Shown here piece after piece: positions 45,755 through 60,566 of a DNA stretch of 64,000 nt. Made by a program: the position numbers and the translations under genes. Numbering within the stretch: the first letter of the stretch is position 1; every line of letters begins with the position of its first letter. Source of the DNA: Candidatus Eiseniibacteriota bacterium (GTDB taxonomy: Bacteria > Eisenbacteria > RBG-16-71-46); contig OY970178.1 of assembly GCA_963707915.1 (NCBI GenBank), positions 3,232,001 through 3,296,000 on the forward strand, written 5' to 3'. The notes beneath the pieces were generated by a model. That model had not been told where the DNA came from. It ran no database searches and worked only from the letters and a program-made list of their open reading frames with translations.

Positions 45755-48099
<2,345 letters not shown>

Positions 48100-50288: not shown

Positions 50289-51752
50289 ATGATCGACCTC
50301 AGAGGTGACGTCCGACGGTCGCTGCCGCTGCTGGTCCTCCTCGCGTGCGGCATGCTCGCGTTCGGGGCCCTCGTCGCCGGGTGCGGCCGGCCCGCCGCCA
50401 CCGGCCGGACCGCCGGCGGCCAGCGGCAGCAGTACCACTGCCCGATGCACCCGACCTACGTGTCCGACCGGCCGGGCGACTGCCCGATCTGCGGCATGAA
50501 GCTCGTGCCGATCGAGGCGAAGAAGCCGAACGGCGCCGGAGGTCCGCCCGCCGCGGCGGGCGCGACGACCGCTTCCGCCGGGCCGCGCAGGATCCTCCAC
50601 TACCGCAATCCGATGAACCCCGCCGTCACCTCGCCGGTGCCGATGAAGGACGAGATGGGCATGGACTACGTGCCGGTCACCTCGGACCAGGTGTCCGTGG
50701 CCGGCAGCGTGGAGGGCCATGCCTCGGTCGAGGTGAGTCCCGACGAGCTGAAGCTGGCGGGCCTTCAGAGCATTGTGGCCCGACGCGGGAGGCTGGCCCA
50801 CACCATCCGCACGGTCGGCGAGGTCAAGGCCGACGAGACGCGGATCAGCCAGGTGCACACCAAGATCTCCGGGTGGGTCGAGAAGCTGTTCGTCAGCTCC
50901 AGCGGGCAGGCGGTCCGCAGGGGCCAGCCGCTGCTGAGCATCTACTCGCCCGAACTGCTCGCGACCCAGCAGGAGTTCCTCCGGGCGCGCGAATCCGCCG
51001 CCCGGTTCACCGGGAGCGACCTGCCCGAGGTCCGCCGCGGTGGCGAGGAGCTGCTGGCGGCGGCCCGGCAGCGACTCGCGCTGTTCGACGTGCCGCAGAG
51101 CTTCGTCGAAACGCTGGAAAGCACGGGAAAGCCGCAACGCACCGTGACGCTCGACGCCCCGGCATCGGGGTTCGTCACCGGGAAGGAAGTCTTTGCGGGA
51201 ACGCAGATCGAGCCGGGAATGACGCTCTTCACGGTTACCGACCTGTCGAAGGTCTGGATCGAAGCCGAGGTCTACGAGTACGAGGCTCCGCTGGTGCGGA
51301 CCGGGCAGCAGGCCCGCGTGACCCTCGCCTACGACCCGGCGCGCGTCTACGTGGGGCGGGTCAGCTACATCTACCCGTACCTGAACCCGGACACCCGCAC
51401 GCTGCGGATCCGCTTCGAGTTCGACAATCCCGGCCTGGCGCTGAAGCCCGGGATGTACGCCAACGTCGAGCTCGACGCTCAGGCGGTCGCAGGCATCCTG
51501 ATCCCCGACGCGTCGATCCTGGACACCGGCCCACGGCAGATCGTGTACGTCAAGACCGGTGAGGGGCGCTACGAGCCGCGCCAGGTGAAGGTCGGTATCC
51601 GGAGCGACGGCCAGGCCCAGATCCTCTCGGGGGTGAAGGAAGGCGACGAGGTCGTGGATCGGGCCAACTTCCTGCTCGACTCGGAGTCCCGCCTGCGCGC
51701 CGCGATCGGCAAGGCGCCGGGGGCCCACACCGCGGGCGCGGGCGCGCGATGA
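50289..51752 (+). CDS. cusB: CusB-type RND membrane fusion protein with heavy-metal-binding domains
   Basis: YHCPMHP..CPICGMKL and YRNPMNP..KDEMGMDYVP domains; SGWVEKL, YSPELL, LKPGMY, FLLDSES. Confidence 0.9.
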   Translation: MIDLRGDVRRSLPLLVLLACGMLAFGALVAGCGRPAATGRTAGGQRQQYHCPMHPTYVSDRPGDCPICGMKLVPIEAKKPNGAGGPPAAAGATTASAGPRRILHYRNPMNPAVTSPVPMKDEMGMDYVPVTSDQVSVAGSVEGHASVEVSPDELKLAGLQSIVARRGRLAHTIRTVGEVKADETRISQVHTKISGWVEKLFVSSSGQAVRRGQPLLSIYSPELLATQQEFLRARESAARFTGSDLPEVRRGGEELLAAARQRLALFDVPQSFVETLESTGKPQRTVTLDAPASGFVTGKEVFAGTQIEPGMTLFTVTDLSKVWIEAEVYEYEAPLVRTGQQARVTLAYDPARVYVGRVSYIYPYLNPDTRTLRIRFEFDNPGLALKPGMYANVELDAQAVAGILIPDASILDTGPRQIVYVKTGEGRYEPRQVKVGIRSDGQAQILSGVKEGDEVVDRANFLLDSESRLRAAIGKAPGAHTAGAGAR

Positions 51753-54700
51753 TCCGCAAGATCATCGACTTCTCGGCTAAGAACCGGGTCCTCGTCCTGC
51801 TGGGCGTCGGGGTGCTCTGCGCCTACGCCTTCTACATCCTGCACCAGATCCGGCTCGACGCGCTGCCCGACCTCTCCGACACCCAGGTCATCGTCTACTC
51901 GCGCTGGGACCGGTCCCCCGACATCATGGAGGATCAGGTCACCTATCCCATCGTCTCGGCGCTGCTGGGAGCGCCCCGCGTCAAGGCGGTCCGCGGCTTC
52001 TCGGACTTCGGCTATTCCTTCGTCTACGTGATCTTCCAGGACGGCACCGATCTCTACTGGGCGCGCTCGCGGGTGCTGGAATACCTGTCCAAGATCCAGT
52101 CCGACCTGCCCGACGACGTGCGCACCGAGCTGGGTCCCGACGCCACCGGCGTGGGCTGGGTCTTCCAGTACGCCTTGGTCGACCGCTCGGGCACGCACTC
52201 GCTCGATCAGCTCCGCTCGTACCAGGACTGGACGCTCCGCTACGCACTCCAGTCGGTGCCCGGAGTGGCCGAGGTGGCCTCGATCGGCGGCTACGTCAAG
52301 CAGTACCAGATCACGGTGGACCCCAACCGGCTCGCCGCGTACGACCTGTCCATCTCCACCGTGATCGATGCCGTCCGCAACTCCAACAACGAGGTCGGCG
52401 GCCGGCTCATCGAGTGGAGCGGCACGGAGTACATGGTCCGCGGCCGCGGCTACTCGAAGAGTCTCGAGGACTTCGGCAGCATCGTGGTGAAGACCGGCGC
52501 GGGCGGCGTGCCGGTGCTCCTGAAGGACGTGGCGCGGGTCGGCCTGGGCCCCGAGATCCGTCGCGGCGTGTCCGACCTCGACGGGAAGGGCGATGCGGTG
52601 GGCGGCATCGTGATCATGCGCCATGGTGAGAACGCCCTGAACGTGATCCAGCGCGTCAAGGAGAAGCTCGGCGACCTCGGGCCGTCCCTGCCCGCAGGGG
52701 TGGAGTTCGTCACCACCTACGACCGGGCGGATCTCATCACCCGGGCGATCGAGACGCTCAAGCACGAGCTGACCATCGAGATGATCATCGTCTCGCTGAT
52801 CATCCTGCTCTTCCTCTGGCACATCCCCTCGGCCGTCGTGCCGATCCTGACCATCCCGATCTCGGTGCTCCTGGCCTTCATCCCGCTCTTCTACTTCGGC
52901 GTCACCGTCAACATCATGTCGCTGGCCGGCATCGCCATCTCGATCGGCGTGCTGGTGGACGGGGCGATCGTCGAGGTGGAGAACGCCTACAACAAGCTCC
53001 ATCTCTGGGACGCGGGGGGCAGGAAGGGCGACTTCCACGCGGTCCGCCTCGAGGCGCTCAAGGAGGTGGGGCCCTCGGTCTTCTTCTCGCTGCTGGTCGT
53101 GGCGGTGGCGTTCCTGCCCATCTTCGCCCTGGTGGACCAGGAAGGCCGGCTGTTCAAGCCGCTGGCCTACTCCAAGAACCTGGCCATGGCGCTGGCGGCG
53201 TTCCTCGCCATCACGCTCGACCCGGCCATGCGGATGATGTTCACCCGCATGGACCCCTTCCGCTTCAAGCCCCGCTTCCTGGCGAAGCTCGCCAGCCACG
53301 CCCTGGTCGGCACCTACTACTCCGAGGAGAAGCACCCCATCAGCCGCGCCATCTTCAGGGTGTACGACCCGGCCTGCCGCTTCGTGCTGAAGCGGCCGAA
53401 GACGATCATCCTGGCGGCGGCCGCCATCGTGGCGTTGAGCATCCCGGCCTACTTCAAGCTGGGCTCGGAGTTCATGCCCCCGCTGAACGAGGGGACGATC
53501 CTCTACATGCCGACGACCCTGCCCGGCATCTCGGTGGCGGAGGCCCAGGCGCTCCTGCAGACCCAGGACCAGGTCCTCAAGTCGTTCCCCGAGGTCGAGC
53601 GGGTGTTCGGCAAGGCGGGGCGCGCCGAGACCTCCACCGATCCCGCGCCGTTCTCGATGATGGAGACCACGGTGATCCTCAAGCCGCCGCAGGAGTGGCG
53701 CGGCAAGAAGCGCTGGTACTCTTCGTGGGTGCCGGGCTTCCTCAAGCCGGTTCTCCGCCCGATCTGGCCCGACCGGATCTCGTGGGACGAGCTGGTCGCG
53801 GAGATGGACGCCAGGCTCAAGATCCCCGGCGTGACCAACGCGTGGACCATGCCGATCAAGGCCCGCACCGACATGCTGACGACCGGGGTCCGCACCCCGA
53901 TCGGGATCAAGATCTTCGGCTCGGATCTCAAGGAGATCGAGAAGCTGGGCGCCCAGCTCGAGGGCCTGATGCGGCAGGTGCCGGGCACCCGGAGCGTCTA
54001 CGCCGAGCGGGTGACCGGCGGCTACTTCCTCGACTTCGAACCCCGGCGGGACCAGCTCGCCCGCTACGGGCTCACCATCGCGGACGTCCAGACGGTGCTG
54101 ATGTCGGCCGTGGGCGGCGAGAACGTGACCACCACCATCGAGGGCCGTGAACGCTACCCGGTCAACGTGCGCTACCCCCGGGAGCTCCGCGACAACGTGG
54201 ACCGTCTGCGAAGGGTCCTGGTGAAGACCCCCGCGGGGCCGCAGGTGCCGCTGGCCCAGCTCGCCGACATCCAGCTGGTCACCGGGCCGGCGATGATCCG
54301 GGACGAGAACGGCTTCATGGCCGGCTACGTCTACGTCGACATGACCGGCGGGGACATCGGCGGCTACGTCGAGAAGGCCAAGAAGCTGGTGCGGGAGAAG
54401 CTGACCCTGCCGCCCGGCTACCGTGCTGCAATGGAGCGGCCAGTACGAGAACATGATCCGGGTGAGCCAGCGGCTCAAGGTCGTGGTGCCCATCACGCTG
54501 GTGCTGATCTTCGTGCTGCTGTTTGCCAACACCCGCTCGTGCGTTCAAGTCGATGGTGGTGATGCTGGCCGTGCCGTTCTCCGCCGTCGGCGCCATCTGG
54601 CTCTTCCACTTCCTGGGCTACAACGTGTCCATCGCGGCATGGGTGGGGATGATCGCGCTGCTGGGCCTGGACGCGGAGACCGGCGTCTTCATGCTGCTCT

Positions 54701-55005
54701 TCCTGGACCTCTCCTACGACGAGGCCCGCAAGAAGGGGCTGCTGCGGACGCTGGGAGAGTTGGACGAGGCCATCCTGCACGGAGCGGTCAAGCGGGCGCG
54801 ACCCAAGATGATGACGGTCTGCGCCGCCTTCATGGGCCTGCTCCCGATCATGTGGTCGACTTCGGCCGGCGCGGACGTCATGAAACGGATCGCCGCGCCG
54901 ATGATCGGCGGACTGGTCACCTCGTTCCTGCTGGAACTGCTGGTCTACCCGGCCATCTACAAGCTCTGGAAGCTGAAGACCGACCTGAAGGAGCTCGAAT
55001 CGTGA
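51749..55005 (+). CDS. cusA: CusA/CzcA heavy-metal RND transporter (two frameshifts at ~54421 and ~54540)
   Basis: LDALPDLSDTQVI, LGPDATGVGWV, GSEFMPPLNEG, PAPFSMMET, W.MPI..R.DML; tail WSGQYE and RPKMMT..MKRIAAPMIGG in successive +1 frames. Confidence 0.92.
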
Positions 55006-55070
55006 CCCCCGGCGCTCCGCCGGCCGCGCGGACACGCCCACTTCACCCAGGTGCCGCAGAGGAGATGAAG

Positions 55071-55409
55071 ATGAAGCTGAAGATGCTGGTGACGGTCGTG
55101 GTGGTGATGCTGGCGGTGGCGTTCGCGAGCGCCCTGGCGGGCAGCGAGCAACGCGTGAGGCTCTCGGTGACGAAGAACGGCTTCGAGCCTGCGGTGGTGA
55201 CGGTGCGGGCCGGGCAACCGGTGGTGCTGCTGGTCACCCGCAAGACCGACCGCACCTGCGCGACCGAGCTGGTGCTGAAGGCCTACGACATCAACGAGAA
55301 GCTGCCGCTCAACAAGACCGTGTCCATCCGCTTCACCCCCAGGCAGAGCGGGACGCTCCAGTACGCCTGCGGGATGGACATGTACAAGGGGAAGATCGTG
55401 GTGAAGTGA
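55071..55409 (+). CDS. Cupredoxin-domain (CupA-like) periplasmic copper protein
   Basis: Signal peptide, GFEP, CAT and CGMDM copper ligands; GAGGAG SD. Confidence 0.85.
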   Translation: MKLKMLVTVVVVMLAVAFASALAGSEQRVRLSVTKNGFEPAVVTVRAGQPVVLLVTRKTDRTCATELVLKAYDINEKLPLNKTVSIRFTPRQSGTLQYACGMDMYKGKIVVK

Positions 55410-56838: not shown

Positions 56839-57010
56839 CGATCATCGGCCGGCCTGATCTCGCCGGATGGAGAGCAGGTGGACCCCGATCGGGGACCCAT
56901 CGAGCCGGGAGTCGCGCGGGCGAGCGTGTGTGCACTCAGCCGTCCACGCGGCTACCGGCTCGGCCGGTCCAGCCTGGCGCGGCGACTCCCCGGCTCCGGA
57001 GCGCCCGGGA

Positions 57011-57871
57011 CTACTCCAGGCCCAGATCCTCCATGTCGCCCTCGTCGAAGCCGAGCAGGTGCGCCAGCTCGTGCTGCACCGTGGTGCGCACCTCGGTCGC
57101 CAGCTCCTCGCGGTCCGCGCAGGAGCGGAGCAGGTTGCGACGGAAGAGGTAGATGGCCTCGGGGACGCCGGGCAGGTCGACGTGGCTGCGCTCGAGCAGG
57201 CTGCGTCCGACGAAGAGCCCGAGCAGGTCGGGCGGCAGGGGCGGATCCTCGGCGGTGAGGATCTCCCGCCAGGGCAGGTCCACGACCAGGACCGGCGTGT
57301 CGAGCGCCTCGGCGAAACTCCGGTGCATGTGTTCCGGCACCTCCGCCAGCTTCTCCTTGAAGAACCTCTCGACCAGCGCCTGGCTCTCCTCCACCAGCGC
57401 CTGGAAGTCCTCGTCCGTGATCTCGAAGGGCTGCGCGAAGGCCACCGGGTCGATGGCCCGGGCCTCGGCCGCGTGCTTCCGCGCGTGCTCCGGCTGGTCG
57501 AGGTACTCGTAGACGCGGGACAGCAGATCGTGCGCCTCGGCCAGGTCGGGGGTCACGGCCACGGCGCGCAGGGCGTCGTCGCGCGCCTGCTCGAAGCGCA
57601 CCAGTTCGAAACGGGCGACGGCGCGCAGGTAGAAGAGCAGCGCGGGGTCGGCCGAGCGCTCGGCTCCCAGCAGGGTCTCGAGCGCCCGGGCGGGCTCGCC
57701 TTCGTCGAGGTAGACGGCGGCCTCCACGATGCGGACGTCGGGATGCCCGGGGCGCGCCCGCAGGAGCGTGTCCAAGGTCGCACGGGCCTTCTCCACCTCG
57801 CCCTCGTCGAGCAGGTCCCAGATCCGGCTGACCTCGGCCCACTCGGTCTCTGACAGCGTGTCGTAGCTCAT
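57011..57871 (-). CDS. TPR + zincin-like metallopeptidase domain protein
   Basis: N-terminal TPRs; LLGLF.G, IYLFRRNL, TVQHELAHLLGFDE HExxH. Confidence 0.85.
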   Translation of the reverse strand: MSYDTLSETEWAEVSRIWDLLDEGEVEKARATLDTLLRARPGHPDVRIVEAAVYLDEGEPARALETLLGAERSADPALLFYLRAVARFELVRFEQARDDALRAVAVTPDLAEAHDLLSRVYEYLDQPEHARKHAAEARAIDPVAFAQPFEITDEDFQALVEESQALVERFFKEKLAEVPEHMHRSFAEALDTPVLVVDLPWREILTAEDPPLPPDLLGLFVGRSLLERSHVDLPGVPEAIYLFRRNLLRSCADREELATEVRTTVQHELAHLLGFDEGDMEDLGLE

Positions 57872-58063
57872 CGCAGGCGACCTCCGTCCCCGCAATCTAG
57901 CGCCCCGCGACCGGGTGCGCCACCCGCTCGCGCGCGCGTCCCGCGCGGTCCGCTCCGCGCCCGCGCGGGGTCGCGCCGATCGCCGTTCGCGCGCCGACGC
58001 GTCAACGGGATGTCAATCATTCCGGCCGCGGCACCGCGACCGGGCGGGAAACGGGCCATATCC

Positions 58064-58093
58064 TTGACGCCCGCGCGCGGCGAACCGTAGACT
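58064..58093 (+). promoter_or_regulatory. Putative sigma70 promoter for the selenoprotein gene
   Basis: TTGACG-18 bp-TAGACT about 70 nt upstream of ATG 58161. Confidence 0.5.
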
Positions 58094-58160
58094 CAAGTCG
58101 CATCTTCCGCACGCCGTTACCGTGCTTCGAACCATCCTCGTTCTCGGGAGAGCCTGTCGC

Positions 58161-59585
58161 ATGAAGACCCTGCTGTCGCGGTTCGTCGCCACCGCGTTCC
58201 TCGCGGCCGTCGCCTGGGTGCTGCTGGCCGGTGCCAGCGCTCCGCGGACGACCCCGCTCGAGCCGGACAAGCTCGTCATCCTCTCCACCAACGACGTCAA
58301 GGGCAAGACCGACCCCTGTGGCTGACACACCCCCAAGGGGGGACTCGCCCGGCGGGCGGGTTTTGTCGACAGCATCAAGGTGAGCTACGGCCAGGTCGTG
58401 CTGGTGGACGGCGGCGGCTTCTTTCCCGAGGACGACCTGCACCAGGACGTCGCCTGGTTCCTGATGGACGCGATGAAGGTGCTGGGTGTCGACGCGGTGG
58501 GGACGAGCGAGAGGGAGCTGCGCTTCGGGGCGAGCTTCCTGAAGGCGCAGATCAAGCGCACCCAGCTGCCGATGGTGTGCGCCAACCTCTACCTGTCGAA
58601 GACCTCGAAGCTGCTGCTGCCGCCCTACGTGCTCAAGCAGGTGGGCACGGTCAAGGTCGGCATCTTCGGGCTCATGAGCAACGCCCCCGGCCTGGACCTG
58701 GGCCCGGCCCGGGACTCGCTGCGCGTCGAGGAGCCCTCGGCCGCGGCCAAGCGCACGGTCGCGGAGTTGCGCAAGAAGGGCGCGACGGTGGTGGTGCTGC
58801 TTTCCCAGCTCGGCAAGGTCGAAGGCGAGGACCTGGTGACGGCGGTGGACGGCATCGACGCGGTGATCCTCGGTCACGGCACGCCGCTGCTCCAGAAGGG
58901 GCGCCTGATCAAGGCCACGGTGGCGTGCTACGGCGGCGAACAGGGCCAGTACATCGGGCGCACGCTGCTGACGCTCGATGCGAAGCGGAAGATGACCACC
59001 GGCGACAACGAGACCTTCATCCTGGGGCCCGAGATCGCGGAGAAGAAGGAGATCGCCGCGCTGGTGAAGGGGTTCAACGACAGCTTCAACGACAAGCTGC
59101 AGAAGCTGCAGAAGGAGAAGGCCGCGAGGGACGCCGAGAAGGCGGTGCAGGGTTCGCCCGAGCACTACCTCGGGGGCGAGATCTGCGCGCGCTGCCATCC
59201 GGCGGAGGCGGCGCAGTGGAAGACGACCAAGCACGCTCAGGCCTGGGAGACGCTGGTGGCGGCGAAGCAGGACACCGTCGCCAGCTGCATCGGCTGCCAC
59301 GCGGTCGGTTTCCGACAGGCCGGTGGGTTCAGGGACCCAGTGAGCACCGGGAACCTGAAGGGCGTCCAGTGCGAGAGCTGTCACGGCATGGGCTCCACGC
59401 ACGAAGCGTTCAGCGCGACGCCGCGCAGGGTCACCGAGCTGACCTGCCGGATCTGCCACACCAAGGAAGTGAGCCCGGGGTTCGACTTCGCCCTGTACCA
59501 GGCCCACGTGGACCACAAGGGCACGGGAACGAAGCAGCCTCTGCCCGGGTCTCCGATGAGGAAGTACCTGCCGACCGGCAAGTAG
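58161..59585 (+). CDS. Secreted UshA-like selenoprotein (CGU) fused to a tetraheme c-type cytochrome domain; TGA 58323-58325 read as Sec
   Basis: ORFs 58122..58325 and 58380..59585 share a frame; read-through gives STNDVKGKTDPCG-U-HTPKGGLARRAGFVD..VLVDGGGFF. CARCH, CIGCH, CESCH and CRICH heme motifs; 474 aa. Confidence 0.85.
58341..58363 (+). promoter_or_regulatory. Putative bacterial SECIS hairpin
   Basis: GGACTCGCCC-GGC-GGGCGGGTTT 10-bp stem (three G-U pairs) with a G-led apical loop starting 26 nt after the in-frame TGA. Confidence 0.65.
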
Positions 59586-59851
59586 CGCCGCAAGGCCTGA
59601 AGAACGTCGCGGAGCGGGTCTCCCGAGAGGCCCGCTCCGCAGCCGTTTCCAGCTCCGCCCTTCGGCCGGGAGGCTCCGCAAGGCCGCGCGCCCGGTGGTC
59701 CCACGCCGCTCCTGCGCGGTCTCGGTCCGCTCGATCGCGGAAGGAGAGCCCCGATTCCCGCCCCCCGGAACGGACTCAAGTGTCCAGCCAGGACCGTCGC
59801 CGGTCCCCGCGACCCCGGCAGGGACCCGGTCGTGGTTTGTAAGATGTTCGA

Positions 59852-59864
59852 TATCAACGAGTTG
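59852..59864 (+). promoter_or_regulatory. IHF-like binding site
   Basis: TATCAAcgagTTG is an exact match to WATCAAnnnnTTR in a locally AT-rich patch. Confidence 0.5.
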
Positions 59865-59897
59865 AATATGTCGGACAAGGTTCTGTCGCGAAGAAGG

Positions 59898-59926
59898 TTG
59901 ACAAGCCCGTGGCCTCGCTCTAGGTT
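59898..59926 (+). promoter_or_regulatory. Sigma70 promoter for the small lipoprotein
   Basis: TTGACA-17 bp-TAGGTT. Confidence 0.6.
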
Positions 59927-60133
59927 CTCGTGGACTTCTGCTAGGCGCACCTGCCCCGACATGGAAGTGCATCGCGCCTTCCGGACTGACGACACGCGAT
60001 TCACGCGCAGGGACGCCGCGGACTTCGAATCGTACTTTCGACGTGGCAGGTCCTGAGAAAGCGTTCTTGAGAAAATGATGGGCCGCTGCCGGACTTCTCA
60101 TGTTCCGGCGCGGCGAGACCGAGAGGAGGTGAA

Positions 60134-60325
60134 ATGGAAAGGATGCGGAAGAATCTCGCTCTGGCGATGGTCGCCCTCTTGGCGCTGACCCTCGCGCTCG
60201 CCGCGGTCGGTTGCGCTCAGAAGAAGGCCGAGGAAGTGACCCCGGCTCCGGTGGCTGACACCACCAGCATGGTTCAGGACACGACGACGATGGCGCCGGT
60301 CGACACGACGGCTGCCCAGCAGTAA
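60134..60325 (+). CDS. Small lipoprotein with DTT repeats
   Basis: Strong GGAGGT SD, lipobox AVG-C, mature tail KKAEEVTPAPVADTTSMVQDTTTMAPVDTTAAQQ. Confidence 0.8.
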   Translation: MERMRKNLALAMVALLALTLALAAVGCAQKKAEEVTPAPVADTTSMVQDTTTMAPVDTTAAQQ

Positions 60326-60352
60326 CCAGGATCGTCTCGCTGTTTGCCTGGC

Positions 60353-60392
60353 GGGAGGGGGGGGTAGCGATATCCTCCCCTCCCTGTAGTTT
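60353..60392 (+). terminator. Intrinsic terminator after the small lipoprotein
   Basis: GGGAGGGGGGGGTA-GCGA-TATCCTCCCCTCCC 14-bp stem with GNRA loop, then TGTAGTTT. Confidence 0.65.
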
Positions 60393-60566
60393 CCGGGGGA
60401 AACCCGGAGCCCGGGCTCCGATCCCTCGCCCGGCCCGCACCTCGGTCCGACGCCAACCCCTCCCGGGCGAGCCGGGAACTCCGCGACCTACCCCCATTTC
60501 GGCCGCTCCGGCGCAACCCGGCCGCGGTCCGTTGCGTAGACGTGGGCAGACGAGGAGGGTCCGTCC

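Follow-up and report, generated by a model that had tools for sequence, protein, structure and literature searches.

We analysed a stretch of 64,000 nucleotides (nt) from Candidatus Eiseniibacteriota bacterium (assembly GCA_963707915.1, contig OY970178.1, positions 3,232,001 to 3,296,000), referred to below as the window, and found that a gene at 58161-59585 very probably encodes an exported selenoprotein in which a 5'-nucleotidase-like domain without its usual metal site is followed by a c554-like tetraheme domain. Sequence comparison indicates that the UGA at codon 55 is almost certainly decoded as selenocysteine (Sec) by the SelA, SelB, SelD and tRNA-Sec of the genome, aided by a conserved hairpin, and we are highly confident that the gene is a real selenoprotein of the UshA-like PCGU kind. 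Proteins of this kind are already catalogued (NF041198), and the gene is not a new kind of system. Our best explanation as a whole, an exported protein of 474 residues that acts through a Cys53/Sec55 redox pair, blends a firm part with a speculative one and is, taken together, somewhat probable; the redox-pair mechanism by itself is put forward tentatively.

The only in-frame TGA of the gene is codon 55 (58323-58325), where translation gives the local peptide D-P-C-G-U-H-T-P-K-G-G-L-A-R-R. Translation table 11 breaks the frame there into two open reading frames (ORFs), 58122-58325 and 58380-59585. The initial annotation, made from the sequence alone, had joined these fragments into one gene with a lone TGA at codon 55 in the context DPCG-TGA-HTPKGGLARR, and translation confirmed this, with 474 residues in one frame. 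It had also expected gene callers to report a truncated cytochrome, which is what the databases hold: the public protein collection contains the gene only as the 401-residue downstream piece (P0002, 100% identical), and relatives in the protein listing are mostly recorded at about 390-412 residues, some under the name 'multiheme c-type cytochrome'. The gene is mis-called in that its sole record for the genome is a 401-residue 'cytochrome' and NF041198 misses the true protein by 2.5 bits; annotation has probably left a clade of Candidatus Eisenbacteria orthologues without a name. The N-terminus of the full translation reads as the signal peptide that had been proposed, a hydrophobic helix (AlphaFold2 helix 2-23) followed by A-G-A-S-A with a putative cleavage site, and the product would be an exported protein.

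Comparison of homologues at codon 55 left two states only. Position 55 was Cys in 14/14 full-length homologues among 120 listed relatives, always within an invariant P-C-G-C. The motif PCG-x-..PKGG matched 110 times in loci L030-L118, which stem from two partly overlapping searches: 66 matches had TGA, 35 TGC and 8 TGT, and one was a chance match on the opposite strand. The column was TGA or a Cys codon in 109/110 matches, with no other residue among the real ones, in agreement with the proposal of Sec at this site and with the alignment suggested as its check (Cys in 14/14 proteins; 66 TGA against 43 Cys codons). Because these loci partly overlap, the distinct downstream sequences number 52 for the Sec form and 41 for the Cys form. 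Of 201 genomes sampled from the phylum, 200 had a match, and 76 of the 78 best-scoring places carried the in-frame TGA; the two exceptions were a match that began past the codon, in a relative that has lost one base, and one Cys form. All 86 sampled genomes of the window's family (86/86) had a match. Many Eisenbacteria possess the Sec gene beside one or two Cys paralogues, and this genome has the Sec form only. The one-base deletion was seen in a close relative (L032:1496-1543, also L051), where a base is lost in the G-run just past the TGA and the frame is shifted (PKGGSPGGRALR); this is probably a homopolymer assembly error rather than a broken gene.

The genome, a single contig of 3.62 Mb that is 94.8% complete, contains the whole decoding apparatus that the initial annotation had suggested looking for. 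Genome search gave selA (543.7 bits), selB (345.1 bits), selD (368.1 bits) and tRNA-Sec (71.3 bits), all above their cut-offs, and the tRNA-Sec gene, with anticodon UCA, lies directly past selD. The selD gene (G000:C1:534747-536011; loci L010 and L014) has one in-frame TGA of its own. Three matches to cytochrome-c assembly were above cut-off in the genome. Elsewhere TGA is an ordinary stop: it terminates 5/8 genes examined around the locus, none of which has an in-frame TGA. Among public sequencing runs, none contained the exact stretch (best word share 0.22), and four runs yielded only short contigs, from relatives with 85-95% likeness, some of which, from DNA and RNA libraries, span codon 55. 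In these contigs 58323-58325 was unchanged among the differences shown, a further 145 differences not being shown; they neither recheck the base call nor show expression of this organism.

A SECIS-like hairpin (selenocysteine insertion sequence) close behind the TGA distinguished Sec from Cys forms. All 7 stem pairs form in 52/52 distinct Sec forms (for one of these, once its one-base deletion is taken into account) and the full 7-bp stem in 0/41 distinct Cys forms, 9 of which make six pairs, although the peptide encoded at the hairpin is nearly identical between the two. Across the alignment of Sec forms, all 308 cells (100%) pair, and sliding the partners by 1-3 columns lowers this to 15-53%. 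At pair 24/36, 30 of 44 distinct rows have C-G, 14 have G-C and none is unpaired; this compensatory switch is a double synonymous change, at the third base of a Leu codon and the third base of an Ala codon. None of 500 shuffles matched the observed pairing values, a figure that is not a probability because the sequences are related. A second small hairpin (ACCCCCAAGGGGGGU-type) precedes the main stem, downstream of the TGA (window 58329-58343, columns 7-21 of alignment A3). Its bases at columns 9 and 21 co-vary (C with U/A, G with C) in a shifted register, and the hairpin may belong to a longer recoding element.

The N-terminal half of the protein has a 5'-nucleotidase fold. The AlphaFold2 model, built from an 82-sequence alignment, had a mean predicted local distance difference test (pLDDT) of 84.7 and a predicted template modelling score (pTM) of 0.65, and Foldseek aligned the N-terminal domain and linker helix over about 310 columns to the 5'-nucleotidases 3ive, CD73 6xue, UshA 1oid and 2z1a (E ~1e-21). 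We assigned the metal-ligand positions by aligning the protein in HMMER with Thermus 5'-nucleotidase 2z1a and with E. coli UshA 1ush, the ligand residues of UshA serving as reference. The motif I Asp is kept as D45, and the His of the same motif (DxH) has become K47. The bridging Asp of motif II (GD) is G86, the Asn-His of motif III (GNHE) is E117-R118, and the catalytic Asp is R121, so that the catalytic His-Asp pair reads R118 and R121. The motif IV His is Q216; the first His of motif V is kept here as H239 (Arg in most of the clade) and the second position is T241. Thus 2/7 ligand positions are retained (D45, H239), and neither the seven dimetal ligands nor the catalytic pair is intact. The erosion of the phosphoesterase ligands noticed at first was borne out by these alignments, with K47, G86, E117-R118, Q216 and T241 as the replacements. 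Pfam gave no match to the C-terminal substrate-binding domain of 5'-nucleotidases, and that region is the tetraheme domain. These alignments strongly support an N-terminal domain that is unable to bind the usual pair of metals.

Ligand loss is specific to the selenoprotein gene, because a tandem 5'-nucleotidase elsewhere in the genome keeps every motif. This 1199-residue protein (L128:1333-4932, + strand, equal to G000:C1:1979332-1982931) has two complete 5'-nucleotidase units with all metal motifs intact. As the second UshA-like match in the genome it was considered as a paralogue and rejected as an ordinary tandem 5'-nucleotidase, and it serves as an internal control. Within the family, G86 and Q216 occur in the window's protein and its three closest aligned representatives, and Asp and His stand there in 36 distant representatives. 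By this alignment the window's clade is the furthest along in dismantling the metal site, and most distant relatives keep the lost ligands.

The C-terminal domain gave the sole Pfam match of the protein, PF13435 Cytochrome_C554, with 53.9 bits against a cut-off of 20.8. The four CxxCH motifs reported at the C-terminus were found at residues 342, 376, 404 and 429. In a conservation alignment of 55 full-length four-heme representatives plus the window's protein they were invariant (56/56). Candidate distal histidines were H358 (56/56), H414 (55/56) and H452 (44/56), and the CxC pair was kept in 46/48 rows that have residues there, with the following GG also universally kept. As aligned, the invariant core is the CxC/U pair together with the four CxxCH, H358 and H414, and the metal ligands vary.

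From these features we infer a redox chemistry. Cys53 and Sec55, on a flexible loop beside the former metal pocket, would form a redox-active selenenylsulfide/selenol-thiol pair that exchanges electrons with the heme chain, and the protein would act as a periplasmic oxidoreductase. We prefer this reading because the CxC/U pair and the hemes are invariant and the metal ligands are dispensable; the wiring of a Cys/Sec centre to the hemes, as first suggested, seems reasonable. The leading guess for the substrate is a small anionic sulfur or selenium compound. The hints are weak: conserved Lys/Arg at the places of the metal ligands in the clade, and sulfur amino-acid genes beside most Sec orthologues. 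Of the 36 Sec-form loci for which 2.5 kb or more of downstream sequence was available, 31 had, past the Sec gene and on the same strand, a PALP+CBS-domain gene (cystathionine-beta-synthase-like, CBS-like) and a Cys/Met-metabolism pyridoxal-phosphate gene (Cys_Met_Meta_PP; cystathionine-gamma-lyase-like, CGL-like), a transsulfuration-type pair. The pair occurred in 1/13 Cys-only loci, there upstream. Examples among loci L043-L117 are L044:9214-11768 and L084:7592-11530, and in L084 the pair ends in an 8-nt overlap with a Cys paralogue. This linkage is a lead and not evidence of function, because all the loci come from one phylum.

Several observations weigh against this reading. The C-G-U loop (residues 50-59) is the only segment of the model with pLDDT under 50, and the window's hairpin folded alone, over 63 nt past the TGA, was no better than shuffles (z -1.38), the hairpin being revealed by cross-locus comparison only and not by single-copy folding. 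The NF041198 score of 272.5 bits lies 2.5 under the curated cut-off of 275, and about 70 linker positions of that profile (273-343) are without counterpart in the window's protein. D86, H216 and H239 are retained in 28/52 distant relatives, in which the Cys pair may lie beside or on a metal, so that a purely metal-free redox pair is doubtful as the ancestral chemistry. In the window the gene is a solitary one, without partner genes and with its upstream neighbour divergent; the CBS-like/CGL-like pair is absent from the window, no CBS-like orthologue turned up in the genome, and the linkage may be only inherited gene order. Selenium and heme in the protein are predicted from sequence.

The main competing explanation, in which Cys53 and Sec55 are ligands of a metal in the remodelled pocket or the distal ligand of a c-heme and catalysis takes place at that metal or heme, is possible and we think it unlikely. 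It draws on the presence of four hemes and only three conserved candidate distal histidines (H358, H414, H452), on the ligands close to the CxC loop that 28/52 distant relatives keep (D86, H216, H239), and on the disorder of the C-G-U loop in a cofactor-free model. Cytochrome c554 has one five-coordinate heme, and His/Cys-ligated hemes are found in sulfur enzymes such as SoxAX and TsdA. In the window's clade, however, G86 and Q216 make a pocket metal unlikely, and the CxU/CxC spacing is typical of redox pairs in the available excerpts of the selenoprotein catalogues. With four hemes, three candidate distal histidines and a disordered C-G-U loop, one heme could be open or have Sec55 or Cys53 as its ligand; movement of what was the hinge helix in nucleotidases could bring the heme domain up to this loop. 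A catalytic site of this kind, a naturally occurring heme-selenolate (or heme plus selenol) centre built on a reused phosphoesterase scaffold to act on periplasmic sulfur or selenium oxyanions, is a long shot.

It is highly improbable that the N-terminal domain is still a hydrolase, either a SoxB-like thiosulfohydrolase or a phosphoesterase, with the hemes engaged in unrelated electron transfer. Its 5'-nucleotidase fold would suit this, as would the next NCBIfam matches past NF041198, which are SoxB TIGR04486 (68.3 bits) and UshA (57.1 bits), and one distant relative reaches 121 bits on SoxB. Yet the SoxB cut-off is 550 bits, two of seven metal-ligand positions are left with Gly for the bridging Asp, a cytochrome replaces the substrate-binding C-terminal domain of 5'-nucleotidases, and a genuine tandem 5'-nucleotidase with intact motifs exists elsewhere in the genome. 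Least probable of all, and already contradicted by the comparative data, is that the TGA is a true stop, whether in a nonsense pseudogene, through a base-call error, or between a 54-residue peptide and a truncated cytochrome starting from GTG 58380: table 11 reads a stop, the databases list the 401-residue piece and no public run contains the exact sequence for a recheck of the base, but the same TGA column recurs in 52 distinct orthologous sequences with Cys as its sole alternative, the peptide is conserved in frame on either side, the downstream piece on its own would have no signal peptide for the export that c-hemes require, a hairpin specific to TGA forms follows, the Sec machinery is complete, and library contigs of relatives bridge the codon with no change there among the differences shown. 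We therefore retain the selenoprotein with a Cys53/Sec55 redox pair as the preferred reading. The features of the gene are collected in Table 1.

Table 1. Features of the selenoprotein gene and its flanks, in window coordinates.
Feature	Position	Strand	Description or basis
Promoter-like site TTGACG-18-TAGACT	58064..58093	+	~68 nt 5' of ATG; consensus scan, weak evidence
Whole selenoprotein gene	58161..59585	+	474 codons, ATG start, TAG stop, single internal TGA
Putative signal peptide, ~residues 1-27	58161..58241	+	hydrophobic helix then A-G-A-S-A; read from translation; AlphaFold2 helix 2-23
5'-Nucleotidase-like N-terminal domain, ~residues 37-290, without dimetal site	58269..59030	+	Foldseek, HMMER, NF041198 profile 7-272
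Cys53-Gly54-Sec55 motif	58317..58325	+	translation; predicted Sec codon TGA at 58323-58325
SECIS-like hairpin	58344..58360	+	7-bp stem CUCGCCC / GGGCGGG (one U-G pair), GGC triloop; begins 19 nt past TGA
Long linker helix joining both domains, residues 296-329	59046..59147	+	AlphaFold2 secondary structure
c554-like tetraheme domain, ~residues 338-455	59172..59525	+	PF13435, 1bvb match, NF041198 profile 344-518
CARCH, residue 342	59184-59198	+	
CIGCH, residue 376	59286-59300	+	
CESCH, residue 404	59370-59384	+	
CRICH, residue 429	59445-59459	+	
G+C-rich inverted repeat, possible transcript end	59609..59640	+	24 nt past stop codon; by eye

The gene looks monocistronic. The promoter consensus scan found 1 site against 0.1 expected in shuffles, and the inverted repeat behind the gene was not picked up by the terminator scan, which requires a T-run. 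Upstream lies a TPR + Zincin_1 gene (57011-57895, - strand), transcribed divergently, which adjoins the selenoprotein gene in 57/88 loci. A long + strand ORF at 56867-57853 was considered as a conserved upstream neighbour and rejected as an antisense frame of this minus-strand gene in high-GC DNA. Further upstream, a copper/heavy-metal theme was observed (window 45755-48022, 51749-54562 and 54423-55409), made up of a CopA-like P-type ATPase (60% identity with its counterpart in L099), an RND transporter that matches CusA/CzcA weakly, and a protein with a cupredoxin domain; genes like these are also seen upstream in related loci. Downstream, the G+C-rich hairpin is followed by a small lipoprotein gene (60134-60325) and then by DUF4097, bactofilin-like and VTT-domain genes. 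The small gene is an unlisted + strand ORF of 63 residues in the 1-kb gap, with a lipobox LAAVG|C and a strong Shine-Dalgarno sequence; a terminator-like hairpin follows at 60353-60384. Bases 60092-60211 show 0-1 mismatches to two same-genus loci, and by its sequence the ORF looks like a small conserved lipoprotein. A tblastn search of the same 1-kb gap for remains of the CBS-like/CGL-like pair, or of a paralogue, gave no match below E 0.01, and at E <= 10 Rfam gave nothing relevant in 57000-60500, with no match to a SECIS model.

Compared with UshA and other 5'-nucleotidases (1ush, 2z1a, CD73 6xue), the protein has in common the fold of the N-terminal domain, the long connecting helix and the periplasmic location. 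It differs in that five of seven ligand positions are replaced and the tetraheme domain stands in place of the C-terminal nucleotide-binding domain, and the C-G-U loop, which UshA lacks, is an insertion in the alignment. With Nitrosomonas cytochrome c554 (1bvb/1ft5, PF13435) it shares the four CxxCH motifs (1bvb match at E 1.5e-9, residues 337-428); c554 is a free carrier, whereas here the cytochrome is a fused C-terminal module, and the c554 equivalog model NF043010 gave 41 bits against a cut-off of 400. SoxB thiosulfohydrolase (TIGR04486), the best match to a characterised enzyme in NCBIfam, is of the same superfamily and likewise periplasmic, but it hydrolyses at a dimanganese site and has neither hemes nor Sec, its cut-off is far off, and SoxB chains in the PDB reached only E 0.98.

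Among selenoproteins, 'COG0737, UshA-like, CxU' was listed with 76 Sec and 92 Cys sequences from marine samples in 2008 (PMC2398784), and an 'UshA-like protein' appears in the catalogues of 2022 (PMC9312934) and 2026 (PMC13188914). The excerpts of these three sources mention neither hemes nor function for it, which fits the earlier remark that CxU UshA-like selenoproteins had been reported with function unknown. The available part of a selenoprotein table has a second UshA-like family with a CxxU motif; its model, NF049981 'UshA-like (seleno)protein family 2', gave 32.3 bits against a cut-off of 140, with CxxU there and CxU here.

The closest known system is NF041198 'UshA-like (seleno)protein' (UshA_like_PCGU), a profile of 519 positions. 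It matches the gene twice, at positions 7-272 on the N-terminal domain and 344-518 on the heme domain, the latter with 127.3 bits. Its canonical members P0168, P0233 and P0243 (522-542 residues, 342-372 bits) contain the linker 273-343 and cover the whole profile in one stretch, and because they do so with four CxxCH each, the curated family is the same nucleotidase-heme fusion. The window's protein shares with it the UshA-like N-terminal domain with P-C-G-U/C and the four-heme domain that follows, which strongly supports broad membership; it differs in the missing linker, in its score and in belonging to a clade with G86 and Q216. Close relatives straddle the cut-off, with 2/12 close Cys relatives over it in one set and 8/22 in another. 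At E <= 0.001 the family at large has 11,820 cluster representatives, of which 586 remain at E <= 1e-30, and heme-less PCGC paralogues of about 310-345 residues also exist (for example L043:4955-5956). Seen against these systems, the gene belongs to a widespread group of exported heme selenoproteins, as predicted from sequence, whose Sec/Cys paralogue pairs, clade-specific ligand loss and sulfur amino-acid neighbours offer starting points for biochemistry.

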